Shown piece after piece: positions 3,621-64,000 of a DNA stretch of 64,000 nucleotides (position 1 is its first letter; each line of letters starts with the position of its first letter). The DNA comes from Octopus vulgaris (taxonomy: Eukaryota). Both the position numbers and the translations under genes were made by a program. The notes beneath the pieces were generated by a model. The model was not told where the DNA came from. It made no database searches and worked only from the letters and a program-made list of their open reading frames with translations. Where the stretch lies: contig OX597841.1 of assembly GCA_951406725.2 (NCBI GenBank), positions 13,888,001 to 13,952,000 on the forward strand. Reading direction: 5' to 3'.

Positions 3621-4559
3621 AGAGAGAGGAGGTAGAGAAGTGTGTGTATGAGAGAGGGAGAGAGATCGTAAAGCATGGCCTAGATGCTGCGGCCCTCTCT
3701 TCCCAGCTCGAGCCAGCGAGACTAGACCGAAGGGATGGTTAAAGGCTTGACAGTATGATAGTTTCCCCGTTCCATGTTAGTAGGTCCCTGATCAGAAATG
3801 CCGTCTGGGAAAGAGAACAAGAGAGAGAGAGAGAGAGAGCGAGTCAAAGGTAAGAGTAGGATAAAGAGAAAAGGAGATGAAGAGATAGAAGAGGAGAAAG
3901 AGGGAGTGAGGGTGAGAAAGAGAGATAGAGAGATAGAAACGGGAACGGAGAGAGAGAGAGAGGGGGTGAGTCAAAGGTAAGAGTAGGATAAAGAGAAAAG
4001 GAGATGGAGAGATAGAAGTAGGATAAAGAGGGAGTGGGGGTGAGAATGAGAGATAGAGACGGGAACGGAGAGAGTGAGAGAGAAGGGGAGGAGGCGAAAC
4101 GTGAAGAAGTGTGAGAAAGAGAGATAGAGACAGAAACGGAGAGAGTAAGAGTTAGAGAGGTAGGAGAGAGAGAAGGGGAGGAGGAGGCGAAACGTGAAGA
4201 AGAAGTGAAAGTTAAGTGCGCCGTAAAAGGTTTACTCTGCGCATGCGTAGTTGTGGGTTCTGTTGGACCAAAATCCATTTCGCGTCGTCCTGCCCGAGTT
4301 TGGGTGTCTCTCTTTTGGGATCCCCTTTTTTACCTGAAACCTTCTCCACCCGACCAAACAAGGAACGATCTTCACCCGACAACAGACGGTAGGAACCACC
4401 TCTACGTCTAAGGTTTACCATTTTACGCTTAATTTTCGTTGAACTTTGATTAAAGGGGTTTTGTTTACATGATAAAGAGACAAGTCCACAGTAAGCCCCT
4501 GTTACCATGGATCCTAACGGGGTTTGCGCCCCACATTAGGGTTCGCCCCGTTATTCATG

Positions 4560-5176
4560 TGAGACAGTATTAAATGGGGTCCTACTTTTCTAATTATTGC
4601 TTCTGTTGTTCTTATTACATTCGCTATTTACATGTTTGGTGCTGTAGTAGTGGTATTAGGGGTTAATGGTGCGGTCCCCCGTCGTCAAAGGGGCCTTTCT
4701 GCTGGTATTTATAAGGGACAGTGTTAAATGGGGTCTTGTTTTGCTAATTATTGCTTCTGCTGTTGTTATTACATTCGCTATTTACATGTTTGCTGTAGTA
4801 GTAGTGGTGTTGGGGGTAATGGTGCGGCCCTCCATCGTCAAAGGGGCCGTTTTGCTGGTATTTATAAGGGACAGTATTAAATGGGGTCTTGTTTTGCTAA
4901 TTATTGCTTCTGCTGTTGTTATTACATTCGCTATTTACATGTTTGCTGTAGTAGTAGTGGTGTTGGGGGTAATGGTGCGGCCCCTCGTCGTCAAAGGGGC
5001 CGTTTTGCAGGTATTTATAAGGGACAGTATTAAATGGGGTCTTGTTTTGCTAATTATTATTGGTATTTTTTTTCTGTTGTTGTTGTTACATTCGCTATTT
5101 ACATATTTGCTGCTGTAGTAGTGGTGTGGTCCCCCCGTCGTCAAAGGGGCCTTTTTGCTGGTATTTATAAGGGACA
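4560..5176. repeat. Tandem repeat, ~153-bp unit, ~4 copies
   Basis: gacagtattaaatggggtcttgttttgctaattattg recurs; 51-aa periodicity of ORF 4666-5118. Confidence 0.88.
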
Positions 5177-5501
5177 GGGTACTACTAGCGAACAAGTGGT
5201 CCCGGTGCGCGCACTCGCGCTAGCTAGTCGTAAGTAGTCGATCCTACAACGACCTTTTAACCCTAAACCGAACCCTAACCCTGACCTTAGTTTGTTTATA
5301 AAAAATAATTTATTTTCTTAGTTTAAAAAAATTATTTACTTTGCGTTTTATTTACTTTGTTCGAAAAATATTATTTAATTTTCTTTGATATGGATTCAGC
5401 CTTGAAATACAAACACACGCGCAAGTCCCTGTAGGATCGACTACTTACGACTACCTAGCGCGAGTGCGCGCACCGGGACCACTTGTTCGCTAGTAGTACC
5501 T
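5177..5501. mobile_element. CpG-rich MITE with ~70-bp terminal inverted repeats and 6-bp TSD (gggaca)
   Basis: ggtactactagcgaacaagtggtcccggtgcgcgcactcgcgctag... and its reverse complement; gggaca at 5171-5176 and 5502-5507; related copy about 31148-31340. Confidence 0.82.
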
Positions 5502-6208
5502 GGGACACACATTAAATGGGGTCTTGTTTTGCTAATTGTTGCTATTGCAATCGTTATTTATATGTTTCCTGTTGTGATGTTACTGGTAAGGGTGCAGTCC
5601 CCCGTTAAATGATTCCCCCCTCTCGTTATTCATGTAAAACCGTATTAAATGGGGTCTTGTTTCGCGTGTTGTTCATGTTCCTGCTCTTCTTTGCACGGTG
5701 TTAGCGGTTGGTGTTGCAGACCTTCCCTCAGACACAAATCTCTACACGAAACAGTCGCCGACCGGCAAATATATATAATAAACCCAGTGTTATCCACCAC
5801 AATAATGGTTCAACTATTAAATCCGTCTTCAAACTGTCCTTCATCAGATTTTGAGGAATAACTCTCAATTACTTCACGAAGGACGAAAAGGATCACGAAC
5901 CGGATTTTTGTTTTCCTCAGTGAAAGAATTTTCCGTCTAAATATTTCAATTATTTTTTTAACAAATTCTTTCGTTTTTTTTACAACTTAGTCCCCAATTC
6001 CGTCCCCTTTTTCTCGGTTATTTTATTTACTATTTCACTTCACTCAAAAGCCGACTTTAATAGAAAACAGCAGGAGCAAAAAAATACGTACACCACCCGT
6101 TTTCGGCGTAACAAAAAACCGAAACCCTAACCCTAAACACCGGGGTGTGCGTATTCTTTACTTTCGCCACAGGATACATTTGCCTTTATTTTATTGTACA
6201 CATTTAAG

Positions 6209-6242
<34 letters not shown>

Positions 6243-7414
6243 ATCTTGAAGTCATAGAAGAGGAGGGCGTAGCTTAAATGCTCCTTTATAGGGGTCCCTT
6301 AGAACTGGTAGGAGGAATGGGATAAAGTGATCCCTAGACCGAGAAATCTAGCCCGAATTATAGCAAGCGAGTGAACCTTGCTGAAAGACACCCGTGAACC
6401 GGGTGAGAGTGCTAACCCGGACAACAGATTGATATTAACCTTAAAACCCACCGGCTTAACGCAAGGGCAGTACACCGGACAGTTATAGAGAAGCTGAAGG
6501 CTCATAGGTCTAAGGCCCATTGCCAATTTTTGTCGGTTGTCGTTTGCTGTCAGTAAAAAAAAAATGTAAAACCACCAACCTTGCCACTTCGCCCAGGGGT
6601 TTTTTTTTTGTTTTTGCGGGCCTCCAATAATGTTACAACAACTCAAAGACTATTTTATTAAGGGCCTCGCTTTCTTCTCGGATTTGCACTGGTTTATTAT
6701 TTGGACTGTAGAATGACAGTGTTAGGAACATAAATTGTGCCTAAGGTTTGGTGGAAGATTTTAATTAAAAACTTATGAAAACAAGACATTTGTACTACAG
6801 AGCCAGAGGTGGTTTCAGCCAGGTTGGCATCGAAAGAGTTAAGCATGCCTCTACATAAGAGCAGATGCACATTACAAGCAGTTGGGAGGGTGTGGATTGA
6901 AGGAAATTTAGGCTATTATTTCTAGCATATAGAATGACCACATTGAGGTCTCCTTCTCTCATGTCTTCTGCTGATTATTTTTCTTCTTAACCCTTTTCTT
7001 ACCATATTTCTGTTGAGATGCTCTGTGTTTCTTTCAATTACTTTAAATATAACAAAGAATTTAGTAAAATAACTTCATTATCATTAAGCTAGTGTTAGGA
7101 ACATAAATTTTGACTAAGGTTTGGGGGAAGATTTTAATTGAGAACTTATGAAAACAAGACATTTGTACTACAGGGCCAGAGGTGGTTTCAGCCGGGTTGG
7201 CATCAAAAAGGTTAACACAGCTTAAACTTGAACCAACAGATCTTTGATATCAAAAGCATGACAGAATGACCATCCCATCTTTTTCCTTCAGGCACAAGTG
7301 TACTTTGGACTACATTGTGCAATGTGCCCCATTTTTAATGTCTTATATTCACAAACGAAGCTGATTACCAAAGTCCACATTGTGTTAGGTTTTATTTTGG
7401 AATTCTTAAATATT

Positions 7415-7621
7415 CTCTTTTTCTCTTTTACTTGTTTCAGTCATTTGACTGTGGCCATGCTGGAGCACCGCCTTTAGTTGAGCAAATCGACCCCGGGACT
7501 TATTCTTTGTAAGCCCAATACTTATTCTATCGGTCTCTTTTGCTGAACCGCTAAGTGACGGGGACGTAAACACACCAGCATCGGTTGTCAAGCAATGCTA
7601 GGGAGACAAACACAAACACAT

Positions 7622-7660
<39 letters not shown>

Positions 7661-7822
7661 CGACAGGCTTCTTTCAGTTTCCGTCTACCAAATCCACTCA
7701 CAAGGCATTGGTCGGCCCGGGGCTATAGCAGAAGACACTTGCCCAAGATACCACGCAGTGGGACTGAACCCGGAACTATGTGGTTGGTTAGCAAGCTACT
7801 TACCACACAGCCACTCCTGCGT
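7415..7822 (-). mobile_element. SINE family A, full length
   Basis: Same head, internal (TA/CA)n and tail as other copies. Confidence 0.88.
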
Positions 7823-8251
7823 GCATACATAAATATATATATATAATCAAAATAATCAAAATAAGCAACAAGTATATCCAAGGTAGTGTAGTACAACCGC
7901 TTCATGCTACTTCATTTTATTAAACAATGTAAGTATTACATCAGTTTTTAAGCTACTTACCACACAGCCACTCCTGCGCCTATTCATTTGTTTGTTTCTA
8001 CGTTTGGTTGCTATGTCTAGCAGTCTGGATGACCATGTAGAAAGGCCTTATTGTTGTCGTCGTTTAACCCAGATTAACTTTGAACCATTAAATTTTTAAT
8101 AGCAAAAGCATGACTGCATGACCATCCCACACACAGGAATATACAGGAGGTCACAAAAAAACCTCCCTTGTTTCACAGAACCATTCTTGTGGTGCTACTG
8201 ACATTAGGCAGGTGGAAATGCCATCTGCTCATAGTTAATGTTTTACGATTT

Positions 8252-9130
8252 CATCATCGTTTAACATCTGCTTTCCATGCTGGCATGGGTTGGACGGGTT
8301 GACTGAGGGCTGGCAAGCCAGGAGGCCACACCAGGTTCCAATCTGATCTGGCAAAGTTTCTACAACTGGATGCCTTCCCTATCGCCAACCACTCTGAGTG
8401 TTAGTGGGTGCTTTTTACGTGCCACTGGCACGGGAGCCAGTCAGGCAGCACTGGCATCGGCCACATTTGGATGGTGCTTTTTACGTACCGCCAGCATGGG
8501 AGCTGGTATCATCCACGTTTGGATGGTGCTTTTTAGGTGCCACCAGCATGGGAGCCAGTCAGGTGGTACTGGCATCGGCCACATTTGGATGGTGCTTTTT
8601 GTATGCCACTAGCACAGGAGCCACTCAGGCAGCACTGGTATCGGCCACATTCAGATGGTGCTTTTTACATGCCACCGTCACAGGGGCCAGTCAGGCGGCA
8701 CTGGCATCAGCCACATTCAGATGGTGCTTTTTACGTGCCACCGTCACAGAGGCCAGTCAGGTGGCACTGGTATCATCCACGTTTGGATGGTGCTTTTTAG
8801 GTGCCACCAGCATGGGAGCCAGTCAGGTGGTACTGGTATCGGCCACATTCAGATGGTGCTTTTTACGTGCCACCGTCACAGGAACCAGTCAGGTGGCACT
8901 GGCATCGGCCACATTCAGATGGTGCTTTTTACGTGCCACCGTCACAGGGGCCAGTCAGGTGGCACTGGTATCGGCCACATTCAGATGGTGCTTTTTACGT
9001 GCCACCGTCACAGGGGCCAGTCAGGTGGCACTGGTATCGGCCACATTCAGATGGTGCTTTTTACGTGCCACCGTCACAGGGGCCAATCAGGTGGCACTGG
9101 TATCGGCCACAACTACAATTTCCATTTGAT
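8252..9130 (-). mobile_element. SINE-like family C copy with internal 66-bp minisatellite (~10 units, 8400-9110)
   Basis: (ATG)n-tailed family with ggttggcgttaggaagggcatccagctg core; 22-aa periodicity in overlapping ORFs. Confidence 0.82.
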
Positions 9131-9379
9131 TGTGATTCGATTGATTTACTTCACTGAATAGGTGTCCTCAAGCACTGCATGTCACCCGACGATTCAACTA
9201 GGGTCAAGTCCAGTGTTCTGCTTGGTTGACTTCCTTGTAGGGACTCCATAATTTATCTTGGCATGATAGTCATCTACCATTCTTAAGAAGTCATGGCCTG
9301 TATTTTTCTTAGGGCCCAGTTCTGACCAGAGGGAAAATTTCATTGGTTTTGTGTGAGGTGATGTCAGAACACCATACAC

Positions 9380-9539
9380 TGTGTGAGTGTGTGTCTGTGT
9401 ATGTTGGCAAACGAGGCCAGGTGAATGAGTGAATGTAACCTGGCCACCTCACCTGGTTCTAATGTCTGTGGTTCGCTGTTATCTTCAGTGTTAGACAGAC
9501 AATAGGCTTCGTTAGAACTGCAAAAAGAAATGGGGGCTC

Positions 9540-9586
<47 letters not shown>

Positions 9587-9881
9587 CTCTCTCCCACCTT
9601 CTCTTTCTTTGTCCTACAGGGGTCACCAAGTAAGACAACTATCTCTCGGGGTCTGTCTATTACACTCTAACCTCTTGCCTGGTATACAACTCCCTCCTTC
9701 GGATCCATTCCTTCTCTCAACTGAAAGGCCTTTGTCTGGCAGGTTACTTGGCAACCCTGCTGGTGCTGGTGCCACACACATAGTACCCGTGTTAGTGCCA
9801 CATAAATGGACCTGTGCTGGTGCCACGCAGAAAGCACCTGTGCCAGTCCAACGTCAAAGGCACCTGTGCTAGTGCCACATA
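9380..9881 (-). pseudogene. Inverted duplicate of 13529-14015 containing a copy of TANGO2 exon 4 (9453-9517) with both splice sites
   Basis: Reverse complement aligns end to end by eye; 64/65 identity over the exon. Confidence 0.9.
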
Positions 9882-9982
9882 CCTGCAGGGGCCGACTGAT
9901 CTGAATGTCCCCCCATTGGTTGGTTGTTTTGCTACATCTCTCTCCCTTTCTCTCCCAATAGGGGGACACGCTCATCCTGACG

Positions 9983-10124
9983 ATGTGTATGCTCTTCTTC
10001 CATTTCCTTGCGGATCCTTCGCCAGATAAATATCGCCTGATCTTAGCCAATGTCCGTGATGAAAGCTGGGATCGGCTCACGTTGCCCCTCGGATTCTGGA
10101 AGGACAATCCCCAGTGTATTGGTG
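9983..10124 (+). CDS. TANGO2: TANGO2 coding exon 1 (acceptor AG ends 9961, so an upstream non-coding exon is likely)
   Basis: MCMLFFHFLADPSPDKYRLILANVRDESWDRLTLPLGFWKDNPQCIG, donor G|gtaagc. Confidence 0.92.
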
Positions 10125-10175
10125 GTAAGCAGTATTTCTTGTTATCTTTCATCTTTTGCTTGTTTACCAGCTCAC

Positions 10176-10231
<56 letters not shown>

Positions 10232-10460
10232 TAATAATTATAATAATAATAACAATAATAATAATAATAATAATAATAACAATAACAATAATAATAACAA
10301 TAACAATAATAATAATAATAATAATAATAACAATAACAATAATAATAACAATAACAATAATAATAATAATAACAATAATAATAATAATAATAACAATAAT
10401 AATAATAATAACAATAACAATAATAATAATAATAATAACAATAATAATAATAATAATAAC

Positions 10461-10501
<41 letters not shown>

Positions 10502-10911
10502 TAATAATTATAATAATAATAACAATAACAATAATAATAATAATAATAATAATAACAATAACAATAATAATAACAATAACAATAATAATAATAATAACAA
10601 TAATAATAATAATAATAACAATAATAATAATAATAATAACAATAACAATAATAATAATAATAATAACAATAATAATAATAATAATAACAATAATAATTAT
10701 AATAATAATAATAATAATAACAATAACAATAATAATAATAATAATAATAATAACAATAACAATAATAATAACAATAACAATAACAATAACAATAATAATA
10801 ATAATAATAACAATAATAATAATAATAATAATAACAATAATAATAATAATAATTATGATGATAATAATAATAACAGTAATGACAATAACAATAATAATAA
10901 CAATAATAATT

Positions 10912-10942
<31 letters not shown>

Positions 10943-13900
10943 TAATGATAATAATAACAATAATAATAATAATGATAATAATCATCCTCGTCATCGTTTA
11001 ACGTCCGTTTTCCACGCTAGCATGGGTTGGACGGTTCGACCGGGGTCTGGGAAGTCAGGGGCTGCACCAGGCTCCAGTCTGATCTGGCAGTGTTTCTACA
11101 GCTGGATGCCCTTCCTAACGCCAACCACTCCGCGAGTGTAGTGGGTGCTTTTTACATGCTACCGGCACAGGTGCCAGGGGAGTCTGGCATCAGCCACGAT
11201 TGGTTGGTGCTTTTAACGTGCCACCAGCACGGAAGCCAGCCAAGGCAGCGCTGGCATCGGCCACGTTCGGATGGTGCTTTTTATGTGCCACTGGCACAGA
11301 AGCCAGTCGAGGCGACGCTGAATAATAATAATAATAATGATAATAATAATAATAATAATAATAATTGTAATAATAATAATAACAATGATAATGATGATTA
11401 CAATAATAATAATGATAATAATAGTCCTTTCTCTTAACGGCACAAGGCCTGAAATATGGGGGGAAGGGGACTAATTGATTACGTCAGCCCAAGTGTTTTC
11501 ACTGTTACTTAATTTATTGACCCTGAAAGGATGAAAGGCAAAGTCAGCTACAGCGGGATTTGATCTCAGAACATAGTGGCAGATGAAATACCACTAAGCA
11601 TTTCGCCCAGTGAGCTAGCGATTCTGCCAGCTTTGATGATCATGATAATGTTGATATGATGATAGTGTTGGCGGGTGACGGTGATGTAAAGCTGCGTTTA
11701 AAAATGTGTGAATTTGTATACCTAATCAACCGACACTGTCTTTAGCTCTTCTGCATGTTTTGTTTCATCAAGGTATGGATCTTATGGAGGGACGAGAAGG
11801 TGGAACGTGGCTAGCTGTGAACCGGAATGGTAAATTATCTTGTTTACTAAACATTTACTGTGAAGAACCAGACCCTTCCAAGAAGCATCGTGGTAGGTGA
11901 ACTGTCCTTGGTTTTGATTTTGTCTTCATTTACACACACACACACACACACACAAGCTTGAAAGAAATGAAGGTAGTGTGCTTCGCTGGATGTGCAATGT
12001 CAGTGTGTCTGTTCGACAGAGTGTAAGCATCTTGAGAGAAAAGCTGGGCATAAGAGGCATCAGATGTGGTGTGCAAGAGAGACGACTGCACGGGTATGGT
12101 TATGTGATGCATTTGGACGAGGACAGCTGGGTAAAGAAGTGCTGATCTCTAACATTGGAAGGGACCTGTGGAAGAGGTAGACCCAGGAAGACATAGGACG
12201 AGTTGGTGAAGCATGATCGGTTTCTTTATTACCCACAAGGGGCTAAACACAGAGGGGACAAACAAGGACAGACAAACGGGTTAAGTAAATTACATTGACC
12301 CCAGTGCGTAACTGGTACTTATTTAACCCTTTAGTGTTCAGATTACTCTGTTAAATGTAATACTTTTTCTCTCAAATTGTTTTGAATTAATCAAGCATTA
12401 TCTCATAGCTTTGAGGTTTCAATGATGTGATTGTTTATTTTGAGAATGTCAATGTAGGTTAGGTGTGAGAGGCTAAATATGGCCAGATTGAATTTGAATA
12501 TAAAACATGTAGAATATCTGGGCCAGATATGGCCGGTTTAAACACTAAAGGGTTAATCGACCCCGAAAGGATGAAAGGCAAAGTCGACCTCGGCAGAATT
12601 TGAACTCAGAACGTAACGGCAGACGAGATACCGCTAAGCATTTCGCCTGACGTGCTAACGTTTCTGCCAGCTCGCCATCTCTCTATCTTTCTGTCTATCT
12701 CTCTAGCTACCTGGTCTATCTTTTTAGCTACCTGTCTCTCTATCAATCAATCAATCCATCCAAACACACACACACGCACACATATTTGTGTCTCTGTTTC
12801 TCACGGCACTCTCTTTCTTTCCATTCCAAGGTCAACTTGTGTCTGATTATTTGAATAATGACCAATATACTGCTGTGTCTTACTCTAACACCTTAGCTTC
12901 GCTCCGCACGGATTTCTCACCTTTTACTATTGTCTTAATGGATCTCAGGTAAGTTCTACTGACTTCCTAAAATGTCTGTAGATTATTATTATTATTATTA
13001 TTTGAGGTCAATGTTGCCTTTCATCCTTTCAGTGTTGATTAAACATGTACCAGTTATGCACTGGGGCCGATGTAATCAACTTAATTCTTTCCCCCAAATT
13101 CGAAGCCTTGTGCCTACAATAGAAAAGATTATTATTATTATTATTATTATTATTATAAAGGCTGTGAGCTGGCAGAATCATTAGCACGCCAGGTGAAATG
13201 CTTAGCAGTATTTCACCCGCTGTGTTCTTAGTTCAAATTCCACTGAGGTCGACTTTGCCTTTCATCCTTTCAGGGTCGGTAAATTAAATACCAGTTATGC
13301 ACTGGGGTCGATGTAATCGACTAGTCCCCTCCCCCAAAACTTCAAGACCTTGCGCCTTCAGTAGAAAGGATTATTATTATTATTAGAAGGTGTCGAACTG
13401 GCAGTATTGTTAATTCACTGGGCAAAATGCTTAGCACCATTTCGTGTGTCTTTGTTCTGAGTCTAGGTTGTCATTTGAGTGGTGCAGAGGAGTAGGGAAT
13501 CACCAAGAAATGGATCTCAGGCTCACCATATGTGGCACTAGCACAGGTGCCTTTGACATTGAGATGGCACAGGTGCTTTCAACGTGGAACCAGCACAGGT
13601 CCATTTTATGTGGTACCAGCACAGGTACTATGTGTGTGGCACCAGCACCAGCAGGGTTGCCAAGTAACCTTCCGGACAAAGGCCTCTCAGCTGAGAGAAG
13701 GAATGGATCCGAAGGAGGGAGTTGTATACCAGGCAAGAGGTTAGGGTGTAATGGACAGACACCGAGAGATAGTTGTCTTACTTGGTGACCCCTGTAGGAC
13801 AAAGAAAGAGAAGAAGGTGGGAGACAGTTATGTATATATATATATATATTTAAATGAGCCCCCATTTCTTTTTGCAGTTCTAACGAAGCCTATTGTCTGT

Positions 13901-16900
13901 CTAACACTGAAGATAACAGCGAACCACAGATATTAGAACCAGGTGAGGTGGCCAGGTTACATTCACTCATTCACCTGGCCTCGTTTGCCAACATACACAC
14001 ATATACACTCACACACACAAATCTATGCATAAACACATATAAATCTACATATATACACACAAGTGTCTTAGACGCACAGATGCTCACACACACACACACA
14101 CACGTGTACACATGCGTGCACATTAATCTACACAGCTACATTATGCATACACATACAAATCTACATAAACATACACACACACACAGATACACATAAATAC
14201 ATACAGACACATGCATATACGCACATTCATACACAGACACCCAAAATGCTGGGGAGACAAACACACACACATCTATAAACAAAGGGCTTCTTCCAGTTTC
14301 CGTTGTATGGCAATGTGTAATTCTGGCAGCTTCCTTTTGCCAACATGACCAAACATCAAGAAATACAGCAGACATACCACAATTACAAGTTTAACATACA
14401 CACACACACACACATGTATATATATATGTATATACATATATATAATCAAAACATTACTTCTAACCTTATAGCAGTTAGATACAGCCATAGCTTGGTCAGT
14501 CAGTGGTTGGACTTCACAACCTCATATGTTCTTAAAATTTAAATCTACATCTTTGTGTATATATCTACCTTCTCTATAATGTTGCCACTTGATATGAAAA
14601 TTTTTGTATTAATGGAAAACCTCTATAATTGGCTGATGAGTACTCAGCATTTTAAATCTGTTGTAATACTTACAACATTTAATAAAATGATGTAGTGTGA
14701 AACAATTGTACCAAATTACCGGAATCATTCTTGTTGCTTATTTTGATTATAACCACCCCACAAATTTTTATGGATAACACCATACAAAATTCTGGTGCAT
14801 CTAAATTAAGTACCATATTCAATCGAATCTAAATTTTTGCTGTACATATATATATATCATCATCATCATATATATATATATATATATACATATGTATGTG
14901 TGTGTATTATATATATATATACACATATATACAACGGGCTTCTTTCAGTTTCCGTCTACCAAATCCACTCACAAGGCTTTGGTCAGCCCGAGGCTATAGC
15001 AGAAGACACTTGCCCAAAGTGCCATGCAGTGGGACTGAACCCGGAACCATGTGGTTGGTAAGCAAGCTACTTACCACACAGCCACTCCTGCGCCTATTTA
15101 CCACACAGCCACTCCTGCGCCTATATATGTATATTATATAAATGCATAGAGTCTCTTTTTCACGTCTGTGTTGCATTGTGTTAACAGACTTGCATTTAAA
15201 ATGCCCAGTTTTAATCGAAAGTTGTTAGTTACTAAAATAGCAATACCAACTGCTTATCTCTTCCACATACAACATAAGATTAATGACTATGTGTTATATA
15301 TATCCAAATAGTCTCTTTTTGAGGTTTGTGTTGTAGTGTTTTAACAGGTTTGCACTTAAAATTCCCAGTTTTAATCATAACTTGATAGTTACCAAGGTAA
15401 CAATACAACCTATTTATTTATCTTTCACACACACACACACCTATACACGCATTCATATACATACTCATACACACACCCATATATACACATACGTACTCGT
15501 ATTCATACACATCCTCATATACACACACACCCATATGTACAATCATATACACACCCATACACACATCCACACTCAGACACTGACCCATGCACGCATACAC
15601 AGCACCCCCCCACACGTTTACACGACCATGCTGTATCTCCCCCCTAACACTCCATCTCTCTCTCTCTCTCTCTCTCTCTTTCCTCCACCAGGTACTTCTT
15701 ATGTGTTTGGAAACTCTGAGTTGCTGCACCCGCTCCAGAAGGTGTGCAAGGGTAAAGAATTATTCGATGACGTCATCGCAAAATACTCCACGACGCAACA
15801 CCAACAGCAACTCAAAGACAGCCTTTTTCAGATGATGATGAACAAAGAACCGTAAGACCTGCCACCACGGCTCCTTCTTTATCTTTTACTTGTTTCAGTC
15901 ACTAGACTGCGGCCACGCTGGAGCACTGCCTTGAAAAAATTCTAGTCAAACAAATTGATCTCAGTACTGTTTTTTTGTGGGTTTTTTCTTATTATGCTTA
16001 CTCTTTTTACTCTTTTACTTGTTTCAGTCATTTGACTGCGGCCATGCTGGAGCACCGCCTGTAATCGAGCGACTCGACCCCGGGACTTATTCTTTTGTAA
16101 GCCCAGTACTTATTCTATCGGTCTCTTTTGCCGAACCGCTAAGTAACAGGGACATAAACACACCAGCATCGGTTGTCAAGCAATGCTAGGGAGACAAACA
16201 CACACACACATATATATATATACATATATACGACAGGCTTCTTTCAGTTTCCGTCTACCAAATCCACTCACAAGGCTTTGGTCGTCCCGAGGCTATAGTA
16301 GAAGACACTTGCCCAAGGTGCCACGCAGTGGGACTGAACCTGAAACCATGTGGTTGGTAAACAAGCTACTTACCACACAGCCACTCCTTGCTATTTATTT
16401 TATCAGTTACTTTTGCTGAACTGCTAAGTGACAGCAATATAAACACGCCAATACTGATTGTCGAGCAAGGTTGGAGGACAAATGCACATGCGCGGTCGTG
16501 CGCACATAATTCAATGGGCTTCTTTCAGTTTCCATCTACCAAAACCACTCGCAAGGATTCGGTTGGCCCAAGGCTATAGTAGAAGAAAGTTACCCAAGAT
16601 GTCATGCAGGGTGATTGAACCTGGAACCATGTGGTTGGGAAGCAAATTTCTTACCACACAGCCATGTCTGCACCCAGCGAGGTGACACCATTTGAGGGCT
16701 AAAGCAATGCAAAAGCGCATTGTGACCAGCAAGGTATAACAACATCTGATAGCCTGCTCCATCACGTGATCACACACACACAACAGGCTTCTTTTAGTTT
16801 CCATCTACCAAATCCACTCACAAGGCTTTGGGGAGCCTTGAGGCTACTGTAGAAAACACTTGCCCAAGGTGCCATGCTGTGGGACTGAACCCGGAACCAT

Positions 16901-18706
16901 GTGGTTGGGAAGCAAGCTTCTTCGTGTTCTGCGTGCTAATTAATCATGTCATGTTTTTGATAAAACTCTTCCATCCCTTATTTGTCGATGTTTGCCAGAT
17001 TACTTTTTTTTAAATTTTTATCTCGTTATCCAGATATTATGACCAGGAATACAGCCAGAAATTTCCATCCTTCAATTCAACCATTCCTTATATCTATTTC
17101 CAATGTGAAGAGGAACGAAGAGGATCAAGGTAAAAAAAGAAGACAGAATATTTCTGACTTTTTAACCTTTAGCACACTGCAGGTGCATCATGGTGTTGTA
17201 TGAGTTTTCTCCCCTCTCAATGCAACACAATGTGCCTGCAGCTACAGGGGAGATAATTCTACAGTGGTGCAATGCATCTAAGCATGCTTAACAAGTGATG
17301 TAAGTGCACTGCTAACACAGCAGAATATGATATTGACTTATGGAAACGTTTAATACACTTAATAATATACTAGCAGTATCGCCCCGTGTTGCTCAGGTTT
17401 GTTTCGACCCTTTAGAATTGGAATTTTTGAAAAGTAAAAATTCTGTATTATGTAGCTTGTTATTCTCTTTACATGAACATTTTTGTGGTTGAAATACACC
17501 GATAAATGGCGACACAGCAGTCAAAAAATCATAAAAATAAGGATTTTCATAGAAAAAAAGCACCTTTTTGATGTAAATAATTTTTGATGTTAACATGGTC
17601 CGATTTGAATTTTTTCTTCTACGGAAGGAAGAGCAAGCCTTCTTCTATCATACTCTCAATTTTGGTCAACTTGCACCACAGGGTCTCGGAGGAGATAGTG
17701 TTAGATGAAGGCTGCCATACATGGACAACTTCAGCTTTATATATATAGATTATTTTTATAATGGCATTGTAGAGCAAGTGTGACAGGCTGGATTTGACCT
17801 GTCTGAACATAAAGCAAAATATGTGGGCCCAATATGGCTGGTTTATATACTAAATGGTTAAAGAGAGTAGGGAGTTTGTTGATAGGAGATTTGGCTGTTA
17901 CATTGTGTAAGGTCAGGTGATTAAATAGAAGCTCCCTCAAATGGTTCATCTGGTCCCTATTCTAACCCCTTAACATTTAGATTATACTGTCAAATGTAAT
18001 GCTTATATATTCATATTGTGTTTAATTAATCCTGCATTATCTCATAGCTTTGAGATTTCAATGATGGGATTGTTTATTATAAATATCAAATGGAAATTGT
18101 AGTTGTGATCCCTGTGCCAGTGGCACGTAAAAAGCACCATCCGAACGTGGCCGATGCCAGCGCCGCCTTGACTGGTTTCTGTGCCAGTGGCACGTAAAAA
18201 GCACTAACCGATCGTGGCCGCTGCCAGCCTCCCCTGGCACCTGTGTCAGTGGTATGTAAAAAGCACCCACTACATTCACGGTGTGGTTGGTGTTAGGAAG
18301 GGCATCCAGCTGTAGAAACACTGCCAGATCAGACTGGAGCCTGGTGCGGCCTCCTGGCTTCCCAGACCCTGGTCGAACCGTCCAACCTGTGCTAGCATGG
18401 AAAACAGACGTCAAACGATGATGATGATGATGATGATGATAATGACATTGTAGAGCAGGCGTAAAAAGCCAGATCTGGCCAGTTTTAACATAAGACAGGT
18501 CAAATATTTTGGGCTGGGTGTGGCCGGTTTAAACGCAATTGCTTTAATTAATGTAAGTAAATGTTTCTCTCTTCAGGACCCACACTGTGCTACTGGTTGA
18601 CGGAGACGGGAAAATAGACATCACCGAGAGGACCCTAGAGACACCGATCAAGGCCGGGGAATTCAGCTGGCAGACCTCCAGTTTCTCTTACAGCCTTGCT
18701 TTATAG
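9983..18706 (+). CDS. TANGO2: Transport and Golgi organization 2 homolog (NRDE/DUF833 family), complete spliced CDS
   Basis: join(9983-10124,11773-11892,12831-12948,13878-13942,15692-15851,17034-17129,18577-18706) = 831 nt, 276 aa + stop; all introns GT-AG with matching phases; N-terminal MC, YRLILAN.RDE, GGTWL, HRG.LV and RTHTVLLVD match the family. Confidence 0.93.
10181..10985. repeat. (AAT)n/(AAC) compound microsatellite, ~800 bp
   Basis: Direct inspection; source of the poly-N, poly-I and poly-L ORFs. Confidence 0.97.
11773..11892 (+). CDS. TANGO2: TANGO2 coding exon 2
   Basis: GMDLMEGREGGTWLAVNRNGKLSCLLNIYCEEPDPSKKHR; aag| and |gtaggt, phase 1-1. Confidence 0.93.
12327..12552. mobile_element. 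piggyBac-like MITE inserted in a SINE B copy
   Basis: TTAA at 12323-12326 and 12553-12556; TIR ccctttagtgtt / aacactaaaggg; host SINE sequence resumes on both sides. Confidence 0.88.
12831..12948 (+). CDS. TANGO2: TANGO2 coding exon 3
   Basis: GQLVSDYLNNDQYTAVSYSNTLASLRTDFSPFTIVLMDL; polypyrimidine+aag| and |gtaagt, phase 1-2. Confidence 0.9.
13878..13942 (+). CDS. TANGO2: TANGO2 coding exon 4 (65 nt)
   Basis: SSNEAYCLSNTEDNSEPQILEP; tttgcag| and |gtgagg; phase 2-1 exactly bridges exons 3 and 5. Confidence 0.87.
14626..14718 (+). ncRNA. Putative type I hammerhead ribozyme motif in a dispersed repeat
   Basis: aattgg-CTGATGA(14633-14639)-long hairpin-GAAAC-aatt-GTA-ccaaatt. Confidence 0.5.
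15692..15851 (+). CDS. TANGO2: TANGO2 coding exon 5
   Basis: GTSYVFGNSELLHPLQKVCKGKELFDDVIAKYSTTQHQQQLKDSLFQMMMNKEP; ccag| and |gtaaga, phase 1-2. Confidence 0.9.
17034..17129 (+). CDS. TANGO2: TANGO2 coding exon 6 (divergent)
   Basis: YYDQEYSQKFPSFNSTIPYIYFQCEEERRGSR; ccag| and AG|gtaaaa, phase 2-2; GSR joins THTVLLVD. Confidence 0.75.
17370..17749 (-). mobile_element. Non-autonomous Helitron
   Basis: On - strand 5' TC start, subterminal GC hairpin, CTAG 3' end, inserted between A and T. Confidence 0.8.
18085..18440 (+). mobile_element. SINE-like family C inserted into a degenerate piggyBac-like MITE (about 17963-18547)
   Basis: (ATG)n tail; flanks resemble the two halves of the 12327-12552 MITE. 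Confidence 0.75.
18577..18706 (+). CDS. TANGO2: TANGO2 last coding exon
   Basis: THTVLLVDGDGKIDITERTLETPIKAGEFSWQTSSFSYSLAL*; ctcttcag| acceptor, TAG 18704-18706. Confidence 0.92.
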
Positions 18707-20138: not shown

Positions 20139-20919
20139 CATATATTTATATATATCTTACCCCTGTATATAATAATAGCTGATAAAATATTTGTTGGTTG
20201 CTTGCTTGCTGTAGTCACACCTTACATTGTATAGAGACAGGAAGAGAGATATAGTGAGGGTTAACATAAGAGGTGTCAGATGATTGCACACTCTAGGCTT
20301 GGTGACAGACAATGAGTAAAAGAACATTCCTCTCCCACCACATACATACACACACACACACACATACAGTGAAAAAGAATTGCAGAGGTGGAGTAAATGA
20401 AATTTGTATTATGTAATTTTATTTTAAAAGTAATAAATATTTTCCGTTTTGAAAATCAGTTTTCATTTCATTTCATTATTTTGTATGAAGTCCCAAGAAA
20501 TTTGATAAAAGTTGAACTTGTAATTGTGGTGTGTCTGCCGTATTTCTTGATGTTTGGCCATGCTGGCAAAAGGAAGCTGCCAGAATTACACATTGCCATA
20601 CAACGGAAACTGGAAGAAGCCCATTGTATATGTGTTTGTGTTTGTCCCCACACCATCGCTTGACAATCGATGTTAGTGTCTTTACGTCCCCATATCTTAG
20701 CGACTCGGCAAAAGAGACCGATAGAATAAAGTACTAAGCTTACAAAGAATAAGTCCTACATGGCCTTGCTTTTGCTTTTTGAGCCAATAAAAATTGAATT
20801 GAATTGGTTGCACCGCCTTTTGTTCGACAAAAGACGGTGCTCCAGCATGGCCACAGTCAAATGACTGAAACAAGTATATATATATATATATATATCGTGA
20901 AGTATATCTATCACTTAAA

Positions 20920-21760
20920 TGTGGCTAACCACTAAGGGTGGATGCTACTGTAGCCCCAGGAGGACATCTCCAGCTGGCTATTGACACACTTTCTGTGCCC
21001 TATCAGTATTTGCAAAGGGAAGCCATCCTTCCCATCTTCAACCTGGTATGATACACATGGGCTCGAGTTTCTGGGTATTGACCTGTCATCAGAGTACAAT
21101 GAGTCCAAGACTGGATATGTAAACAAGTGCCTGTCCAACAGTGATTTCATCATCCATACTCTCAACAATATGCCCTTAAATATGGTTTCTGATTACAAAT
21201 ATATTGGGTCATACATATCATCATCTGAAAAAGATTTTCTAACTAGAAAGGGTATGGCCTGGTCAGCCTGTAATGATATGCATAAGATCTGGTCATCAAA
21301 TCTAAGTAGAGACATCAAACTTGAAATCTTCAAAGCCACAGTCGAACCAATTCTACTATATGGCTCAGAAACCTGGACGTTATCAAAGAAGCTTGAGAGG
21401 CGGTTGGATGGAACCTACACTCGCCTCCTTATGAAGGCTCAAAATCTCTCGTGGAAGTGCCATCCAACCAAAATGCAAATATAAGGGAAACTACCACCTG
21501 TGTCATCTCTTGTGAAAGGTAGGAGAGTCCAGTTTGCTGGACATTGTTGTAGAGCTGAAAAAGAGGTAATTTCTAGTCTTCTCCTCTGGAAGCCATCTAC
21601 TCGCGATACCAGAGAGCGCACACTCTCCTACCCTGATGTAATCTCCAGGGATACAGGCATCCAGCAACGGGACCTCCGTAATGCCATGATGGACCGTGTG
21701 GTCTGGCGTAACATAGTAAATTCCATTGTCTCGACCACGGTCGAACAATGAATGAATGAT
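20920..21760 (+). mobile_element. Defective non-LTR retrotransposon (RTE-like), 3' part of the RT ORF with premature stop
   Basis: YKYIGSYI, IFKATVEPILLYGSETW, FAGHC and W..IV motifs; TAA at 21482; (aatg)n tail. Confidence 0.85.
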
Positions 21761-37354: not shown

Positions 37355-62689
<25,335 letters not shown>

Positions 62690-62774
62690 GTAAGTGACCT
62701 CTGTCCTCCTTTGACCTTTTTAATGCTCAGTGATGTCTACTTTTTTTTTGTTTTTGGTTTGTACCTTTAGATAT

Positions 62775-63215
62775 AGGTTGTGATTTGAGAGGATTTGGCT
62801 GCTATTTCTACCAGAACTAGCTACCATGTAGAGGTCTTCCTCATTGTCTCATACATTCATATATACATATATAGGACAGTGTGTGATTTGAGGGAGGTTT
62901 GGCTGCTATTTCTACCAGCTCTAGCTACCATGTAGAGGTCTTCCCCATTGGCTCATACATAGATAAGACAGTAGTGTGATTTGGGGGAGATTTGGCTGCT
63001 ATTTCTACCAGGTCTGGCTACCATGTAGAGGTCTCCCCCATTGGCTCATACATAGATAAGACAGTAGTGTAATTTGGGGGAGATTTGGCTGCTATTTCTA
63101 CCAGCTCTAGCTACCATGTAGAGGTCTCCCACATTGGCTCATACATAGATAAGACAGTAGTGTGATTTGGGGCAGATTTGGCTGCTATTTCTACCAGGTC
63201 TGGCTACCAAGTAGA
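62775..63215 (-). repeat. About five inverted, shortened (~92-bp) copies of the 107-bp satellite unit
   Basis: gatttggctgctatttctaccaggtctggctaccatgtagaggtctccc is the reverse complement of the intron-1 unit. Confidence 0.9.
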
Positions 63216-64000
63216 AGTTTATATCGGTTGTGTTAACTTACTAAATCGCAATGTCTCTCACAACTTCTCACCTTTTCCTCTCTTCCTCTCTCGTTCTGTC
63301 CATCTGTCTTACTGTTTGTGTGTGTAATCATATTTCTATATATGTGTCTGAGGAGAGGTAAAGTGTCTGTCAGTTGTATTCAATTGTAGTCTCTCTCTTT
63401 CTGTCTGTTTATGTATGAGTATCTAGTTACCTTTGTAAGTATATCTCTCTCTCTCTCGGGCCCTCTCTCTTTCTCTCTGTTTATGTTTGTGAGCATATTT
63501 TGATTTATGTGTCTGAGGAGAGAAAAGTGTTTAATCCCACAGCAGAAGTGTTCAGACCAATCTTTCTGGTTGTGTAAAGCACCCATGGTGGTGCCACGTA
63601 AAAGCACCCATGCAGTGTCACGTAAAAAAGTGTCCATGTGGTGCCACCTAAAAGCATCCAGTACACTCTGTAAAGTGGTTGGCGTTAGGAAGGGCATCCA
63701 GTCTCATTCCGACAAATGTTTCTCTGTATGTGTGTTTGCGTTTAGCGCCAAAAATATCTGTTTTCAAAACAGATTCAGTCTCCATTCAGCCGTGCCAATT
63801 GTCGGCGTCGAAACAGCTGCGCCCAATTTTCTCATTCCAACAAATGATTCTGTGTGTGTTTAGTGCCAAAACAGTTTTTAAAATGGATTCAATCTCCACT
63901 CAGCCGTGCCAAATTGTCAGCGTCGAAACAGCTGCGCCCAGTTGTCTCATTCCGTTAAATAATCTCCCTCACTTCGCACTCTCCCTCCCTCCCCAATATT

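Follow-up and report, generated by a model that had tools for sequence, protein, structure and literature searches.

The TANGO2 gene in the window, the whole stretch of 64,000 nucleotides analysed here, holds in its first intron an inverted copy of its own fourth coding exon. We consider it probable that this copy is a segregating 501-base product of break repair, which is likely matched to its source by conversion near the exon and would pair with it in few nascent transcripts; a selected role is unlikely. Direct observation covers the insertion with its junctions, the empty allele, the location in a transcribed intron and the normal inclusion of the exon in the majority mRNA. We regard the inverted copy as a near-neutral structural polymorphism that might cause editing or skipping confined to one allele.

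The TANGO2 gene and its two arms

Between the open reading frame of 276 amino acids and the TANGO2 protein of O. sinensis, a single residue differs (1/276). The Pfam TANGO2 profile scored above its cut-off in three of the six exons scanned, gave a weak match in one more and did not match the 65-nt exon (13878-13942). A search for a second TANGO2 locus in this genome found none, both matches lying at this locus, and a homologue search with a single exon led to one protein among two candidates and a two-member cluster. The gene is preceded by a non-coding leader exon, whose start is estimated from the extent of leader sequence in an assembled contig (Table 1). Its donor lies at 4389; use of an alternative donor, at 4413, extends the exon to 4412. 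In X9, X12 and X6, loose ends before 9960/9961 match 4358-4387 and 4386-4410; among the rows listed, the loose ends at 9960/9961 carry leader exon sequence only. Transcription hence begins upstream of 9380, as an initial annotation of this DNA had supposed, since mRNA contigs splice the leader (4388 or 4412) to 9962. Because the leader lies upstream of 9380, both arms are contained in one pre-mRNA, where an editing-complementary sequence (ECS) of the exon would have to reside. The exon that was called exon 4 is indeed the fourth coding exon, yet the fifth overall, given the non-coding exon upstream. Its skipping shifts the frame, as had been stated, with a predicted stop after 135 amino acids; 17 of its 24 adenosines are non-synonymous if edited.

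Table 1. Features of the TANGO2 locus and of the inverted copy, in window positions
Feature	Position	Strand	Remark
Non-coding leader exon of TANGO2	4172..4388	+	loose contig ends, 216 leader letters in X12
Intron 1, containing the inverted copy	4389..9961	+	splice joins; acceptor AG at 9960-9961
Inverted templated insertion	9380..9881	-	9380-9880 (501 nt) replaces 7 ancestral bases; some haplotypes only
Exon-proximal part of copy	9396..9542	-	146/147 identical to source
Antisense copy of 65-nt exon	9453..9517	-	retains Thr145 base
Cluster of 11 substitutions and 1 indel, within high-copy repeat	9788..9852	-	
First coding exon, ATG at 9983	9962..10124	+	
Second coding exon	11773..11892	+	
Third coding exon	12831..12948	+	
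Source arm: fourth coding exon and its two splice sites, preceded by the upstream-intron end (old dispersed repeat) and followed by the next-intron start	13529..14015	+	
Fourth coding exon, 65 nt	13878..13942	+	AG/GT ends, in frame
Fifth coding exon	15692..15851	+	
Sixth coding exon	17034..17129	+	
Last exon, coding part up to stop	18577..18706	+	

The alignment of the arms bears out what had been counted by hand. By blastn, 9380-9881 is the reverse complement of 13529-14015 over 506 columns at 90.5%. Global alignment places one mismatch in 147 columns across the exon and its splice sites (13853-13999), and 19 substitutions and 2 indels, i.e. 21 events against a claim of about 21, in the adjoining intron (13529-13830); the hand count had missed another 3 substitutions and one gap at 14000-14015. 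The length of a (TA)n tract is also unequal between copy and source. The copy ends 80 nt before the acceptor of the ATG exon (9962), and the arms bracket coding exons, with the copy upstream of 9962 and the intronic source (13529-13852) downstream of 12948; both points had been claimed. In this arrangement the arms resemble the reverse-complementary matches that drive circRNA formation or exon skipping. The exon-proximal 144 nt occur twice in this genome, while the intronic part belongs to an old dispersed repeat found at 38 other scored places at 68-87%. As the arms are 95% alike, against 68-87% for the other repeat copies, the pair is a local duplication. The substitutions at 9788-9852 are mostly old and located on the copy side; in this region a piece from X10 is source-like, and the X3 copy contig differs from the window at four positions over 9749-9905. 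The X6 copy is source-like at 9846-9848, at a depth of 2.8, and this observation was not relied on.

Origin and segregation of the insertion

Eight of 24 listed runs were examined, as assembled contigs throughout; X1, the best DNA holder and possibly not independent, was left out. X6, X9 and X12 were classed as RNA-derived solely from contigs that join exons across introns, and X7 is DNA-type. The insertion was found in five runs (X2, X3, X5, X6 and X9; species labels A, B and C), with junctions bridged by at least 31 letters, and the empty site in four (X6, X7, X10 and X12), comprising three of the four label-A runs and label D. The empty joint connects 9379 to 9881 in X6, X10 and X7 and appears as a loose end in X12; the same 7 bases occupy it in X10 and X12, and it likewise has 7 letters in X7 and X6. 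In X7, the empty site and the source are each covered by a single unbroken contig, which is what an animal without the copy should show. Both alleles in one sample were seen in X6 alone, at depths of 2.8 and 3.6, and this sample may be a pool. Coverage holes in X10 and X3 over parts of the exon or copy, and the lack of an X2 contig over 9893-10123 (76% of the run read), were not counted as evidence. The copy is thus present under labels A, B and C, and absent from label D and from some label-A haplotypes; label A may itself lump cryptic species, according to the available text of PMC13045820.

X10 (label D) is the most divergent run, with flank differences of 10/267 and 7/290. Since the empty site is common to this run as well, the copy is a derived templated insertion, and the proposal that it was born by inversion-duplication is supported. 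Indeed, an empty ancestral site is accompanied by a nearby template that matches the insert, and the junctions, with 7 bases replaced and 0-1 nt of microhomology, are those of a templated insertion. We conclude that the copy is likely a product of templated DNA-break repair, in which a break in intron 1 would have been filled by synthesis on a template ~4 kb downstream, in reverse orientation, and then end-joined. This event would be older than the divergence between labels A, B and C, without having reached fixation. The divergence between copy and source, 23/465 (4.9%), is near the flank divergence between label-A haplotypes (8/180, 5/290). What counts against neutrality is that an insertion found under three species labels has persisted for a long time.

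Transposition of the copy instead of break repair, through a Penelope-like element, a Helitron or LINE-mediated capture, would be in line with part of the copied segment being an old dispersed repeat. We hold this to be highly improbable: comparison of empty and filled sites revealed no target-site duplication, its place being taken by a 7-base deletion, the copy shows no element ends, poly(A) tail or hammerhead, and the source is a mere ~4 kb away. Rfam gave no ribozyme or other family at the arms, and four weak matches elsewhere on (TA)/(TG) microsatellites. Long-read assemblies can also produce false inverted duplications by fold-back or misjoin; such an artefact, of negligible probability here, is refuted by junctions bridged in five of eight runs from five studies or samples and by arm differences of ~5% that recur in other animals. 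Templated insertions at yeast double-strand breaks, as described in the accessible part of PMC11724301, are alike in that a template is copied inverted into the break, with end-joining on one side and little homology. Local fold-backs there are mostly 5-34 bp, whereas the TANGO2 insertion of 501 bp derives from ~4 kb away, lies in the germ line and occurs under several species labels.

Identity around the exon

The single mismatch within the exon had been described as a G-U pair in RNA. It is not a tuned pair: T at 13931 is a Thr145Ile variant of the gene, giving Ile145 in the window where other sequences have Thr, and the copy retains the Thr base. In a scan test, the p value of a 147-column window with at most one change was 0.029 for 23 substitutions and 0.068 for 20 events, and rose to 0.16 without the distal cluster; the elevation of identity around the exon is borderline once the choice of boundaries is allowed for. 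On the copy side, we counted no changes in the 147 nt around the exon and 6 in the ~140 nt of the middle part (9650-9787), a contrast between exon region and intronic part with a Fisher p of 0.006 when the boundaries of the initial annotation are used and of 0.04 against 13661-13830. Selection could be another cause of this contrast.

At 9413/13982, both arms of the window have the same base, while both X2 arms and the X3, X5, X7 and X9 contigs have another. A private base common to both arms suggests gene conversion, and 9396-9542 is likely a conversion tract that ends where the (TA)n tracts differ in length; the shared base might also stem from polishing of the assembly or from CpG decay in parallel. 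The source-like bases of an X5 contig (9314-9778) were excluded from the evidence for conversion, as this contig is possibly a chimera of copy and source.

Pairing, editing and splicing of the transcript

In all three RNA-type runs (X6, X9 and X12, of unstated tissue), the mRNA contigs carry the exon at a depth of 58-62 without a single other letter, and thus without an A-to-G change; this majority mRNA is the same in the run with the insertion (X9), in the one with the empty site (X12) and in the one with both alleles (X6). Minority forms are lost in contigs, which makes rare edited, skipped or back-spliced transcripts invisible in this data type, and the lack of a skip or back-splice contig was given no weight. 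The low-depth intronic contigs of X9 and X6 have no A-to-G at 37 and 6 arm adenosines, a weak observation given that they may be DNA.

These data bear on the original suggestion of a built-in editing or splicing switch. A fixed, selected ECS on which TANGO2 depends would suit the geometry and the near-perfect identity across exon and splice sites. It is nonetheless very unlikely: the empty alleles in three of four label-A runs and in label D largely refute fixation across individuals and related species, the mRNA is identical with and without the copy and its exon unedited in all three RNA-type runs, and the supposed G-U pair, the sole exon mismatch, is a gene polymorphism in a region where the identity contrast is borderline and bears a signature of conversion.

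The predicted arm duplex is very stable and covers both splice sites; its free energy is -899 kcal/mol at 37 C, whereas each arm folded by itself reaches about -230 at 18 C. A distance of 3.65 kb separates the arms, which lie in different gene segments, and the loop between them spans three introns. For human Alus, the available text of PMC4066801 reports that editing decays on a scale of ~800 bp and is weaker across gene segments; by this analogy, Alu editing at 3.65 kb and in different segments would be near background. As the TANGO2 duplex would exceed an Alu pair in both length and perfection, pairing may be underestimated by the human distance rule. In squid, 119 robust editing sites lie at splice junctions, with high levels in neural tissue, as given in the accessible part of PMC9068888; that part holds no confirmation of coleoid recoding through exon-intron duplexes, which had been taken as established.

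We weighed a young cis-acting allele with a real effect. In its carriers the arms would pair often enough for a considerable fraction of transcripts, though not the majority, to undergo hyper-editing or skipping of the exon, above all in neural tissue; the allele, under mild or balancing selection, would lower TANGO2 output or recode TANGO2. The containment of both arms in one pre-mRNA, the stable predicted duplex over both splice sites, the 17 non-synonymous adenosines, the squid splice-junction sites and an insertion common to labels A, B and C yet still segregating are in its favor; the normal majority mRNA of the insertion holders X9 and X6, the unedited arm adenosines and the 3.65-kb loop across three introns speak against it, and we judge it unlikely. 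An ECS caught at birth, i.e. an insertion segregating across species that renders the exon and its splice sites double-stranded on one allele, is kept matched by conversion and leads, in neural tissue, to TANGO2 recoding or skipping from that allele alone, seems decidedly doubtful; if true, nature would have set up in heterozygotes an experiment on the gain of recoding sites by coleoids. Under the preferred reading of a near-neutral copy, intron 1 would usually be spliced out, or other structures formed, before the exon is transcribed, so that the arms would pair in a small share of nascent transcripts; where a duplex did form, the outcome would be editing at scattered sites or exon skipping with degradation of the frameshifted product, and gene conversion would keep the copy matched near the exon.

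Inverted Alu/SINE pairs, which cause editing, skipping and back-splicing according to the available parts of PMC4066801 and PMC7404189, likewise consist of inverted arms that flank exons within one pre-mRNA. The TANGO2 arms differ in being longer, more alike and a two-copy local duplication, in including a coding exon with both splice sites, and in that any editing by the pair is hypothetical. In Lymnaea, the antiNOS-2 RNA (PMC3537157, available text) is also a molluscan antisense that arose from duplication and DNA inversion of coding sequence; it comes from a transcribed pseudogene, acts in trans and has evidence of regulation, whereas the TANGO2 piece is in cis and intronic, and any function of it is putative. 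Our literature search, which covered little subscription literature, found no paper combining TANGO2 and octopus and no editing element born by inverted exon duplication. Classical intronic ECSs, e.g. that of the GRIA2 Q/R site, are short, imperfect, site-selective and conserved, and usually lie in the adjacent intron. The TANGO2 copy resembles them as an intronic sequence complementary to a coding exon, and differs in being near-perfect, three introns upstream and polymorphic.

Altogether, the locus illustrates cleanly how a templated insertion in the germ line can place an inverted copy of a coding exon within the same gene and be tolerated. The existence of carriers and non-carriers, in a cephalopod host with very active ADARs, allows a direct test of whether editing or skipping follows from a new and perfect duplex at a distance of 3.65 kb. 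If shown in carriers, these would mark one tangible way in which recoding sites are born; their absence would constrain pairing over long distances in cephalopod pre-mRNA. Inverted pairs of at least 200 nt within 10 kb are common in this genome, numbering 63 in 464 kb.

The inverted copy and its transcription

Self-comparison of the window matched 9380-9881 (-) to 13529-14015 (+) in opposite orientation, with 90.5% identity over 506 columns, and thus confirmed the inverted copy of the 65-nt exon (13878-13942) and its splice sites that the initial annotation had described. Alignment of the arms revealed a single mismatch in the 147 columns of the exon and splice-site region. The stretch 13529-13830 differs by 19 substitutions plus 2 indels, in line with the ~21 intronic differences counted earlier, and 14000-14015 by 3 substitutions and one gap; a (TA)n tract of different length in the two arms separates the exon-proximal and intronic parts. 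In a genome search, the exon-proximal 144 nt occur twice, and the intronic part belongs to an old repeat, scored at 38 further places (68-87%). Since the arms are 95% alike, the pair is a local duplication rather than two independent element insertions.

The identity of TANGO2 is supported by 3 of 6 scanned exons that pass the Pfam cut-off and by a seven-exon open reading frame of 276 aa, identical to the O. sinensis protein but for one residue. The reading frame continues through the 65-nt exon and, as anticipated, its skipping would shift the frame, with a predicted stop at 135 aa. The single mismatch lies in the exon, at 13931 (Thr145Ile): the copy's base, encoding Thr145, is found in all three mRNA contigs and in the O. 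sinensis protein, hence the gene in the window carries the variant (Ile145) and the G-U pair is incidental.

In contigs of the RNA-type runs X9 and X12, sequence that matches 4358-4387 fully or almost fully is joined to the acceptor at 9962, and an X6 contig uses a second leader donor, 24 nt further on, with the same acceptor. The copy therefore lies in intron 1 and is transcribed, which removes a transcription start downstream of it as an objection; both arms are in one pre-mRNA, the precondition for pairing. The exon numbered 4 is indeed coding exon 4, but the fifth exon overall, given the non-coding leader upstream. A uORF of 54 or 49 aa starts from an ATG at 4243 and terminates ahead of the main ATG.

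Filled and empty alleles and the mature transcript

Contigs of 8 out of 24 listed runs were compared. At least one insertion junction is bridged by at least 31 letters in X2 and X6 (species label A), X3 and X9 (B) and X5 (C). At the empty site, 7 other bases occupy the place of the 501; this joint is seen in X7 and X6 (A) and X10 (D), and X12 (A) has a loose end with the identical 7 bases. In X7, the empty site and the source are each spanned by a single unbroken contig, which is what an animal lacking the copy should give, and X2 shows the expected fork (shared part at depth 65.9, arms at 34.3 and 27.5). Both alleles occur within one sample in X6 alone (depth 2.8 and 3.6). Altogether, the insertion is not fixed, and the empty state is probably ancestral, as the most divergent run, X10, has it. 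X7 and X12 have common flank and coding variants absent from the window and may represent a separate lineage under label A, since cryptic species have been lumped in this group (PMC13045820).

X6, X9 and X12 each gave one contig (depth 58-62) running from the leader through the 65-nt exon to the next, with no differing letters in that exon among majority transcripts, the forms that contigs show; minority editing, skipping and circles lie below view. X6 has both alleles, X9 the filled and X12 the empty one, and the majority mRNA is the same in all: the copy does not act on the majority transcript. No A-to-G change was found at 37 (X6) and 6 (X9) adenosines of the arm in low-depth intronic contigs, a weak observation because these may be DNA or predate the partner.

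By energy alone, the duplex of the arms is predicted to be very favourable. Against pairing, editing of human Alus drops exponentially (scale ~800 bp) and is weaker when an Alu and its partner lie in different gene segments (PMC4066801); the formula gives ~0.03% above background at 3,648 nt, although the TANGO2 arms are longer and more perfect than Alu pairs. In squid, non-neural editing is mostly low and repeat-linked and robust recoding is neural (PMC9068888). The proposed built-in switch is unsupported, as the insertion is derived and unfixed and the mRNA alike with and without it. The copy resembles a candidate editing-complementary sequence in build, but is not conserved and goes with no A-to-G change in the majority mRNA, so we do not class it as one. 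Our search of partly accessible literature found no paper on the TANGO2 inverted copy. It is unlikely that allele-specific recoding or skipping in carriers is large enough to make the insertion a model for how editing sites are born.

Origin of the copy and identity of its exon part

At the insertion site 7 bases were lost, with no duplication and 0-1 nt common at the junctions, and neither a tail nor an element end nor a ribozyme is present. Because intron sequence is part of the copy, either DNA or unspliced RNA served as the template. The anatomy, from which the mechanism is inferred, fits a copy made by templated insertion as a DNA break was repaired, a known class (PMC11724301).

Of the 19 intronic substitutions, 11 are concentrated in 9788-9852; most of these also occur in the X3 copy and are absent from a source-like X10 piece, which makes them old changes on the copy side, within a high-copy repeat. 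The exon-intron contrast in identity (Fisher p 0.006, boundaries as drawn) weakens once boundaries are not picked after the fact (scan tests, p 0.029, 0.068 and 0.16). Selection on the duplex may nevertheless have kept the exon part alike, given 0 copy-own changes in 147 nt vs 6 in the middle part. At 9413/13982 the window arms have one base in common, and both X2 arms and contigs of X3, X5, X7 and X9 the other. This is the pattern that gene conversion would give; a polishing error or parallel CpG decay could alternatively account for it.

Inverted-repeat background

The surrounding 464 kb contain 63 inverted pairs (at least 200 nt, at least 88%, within 10 kb), 8 of them of at least 450 nt, so that long potential duplexes are ordinary in this region; one covering a coding exon is less so, with exons mapped for TANGO2 only. 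Two of the 63 are low-copy, the TANGO2 pair and a 1.35-kb pair (L041-L042), the latter a possible fold-back element or further local duplication. For editing or looping, a closer candidate is the SINE pair around coding exon 3.

Repeats and minor features at and around TANGO2 (window positions unless stated)
Feature	Position	Remarks
Motif GCGCATGCG	4236-4250	near likely start; resembles an NRF1 site
Leader exon donors	4389; 4413	alternative, 24 nt apart
Inverted repeat, intron 1	5178-5248 / 5430-5500	71 nt, 98.6% alike, 182 nt apart, MITE-like; related piece near 6080-6150
Minisatellite array	8407-9111	unit ~66 nt
Inverted SINE pair	10969-11299 / 18112-18443	within TANGO2 pre-mRNA
Inverted SINE pair	12558-12673 / 13166-13278	within TANGO2 pre-mRNA; brackets coding exon 3, 493 nt
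Decayed piece	20900-21750	resembles an RTE-type LINE, 3' end; related copy near 48267-48669
Minisatellite array	41456-42490	unit ~62 nt
Minisatellite array	44865-47729	unit ~107 nt; inverted match at 62774-63218
Low-copy inverted pair	G000:C28:13991564-13996040 (genome)	1.35-kb arms at 94.5% identity, separated by 1.8 kb
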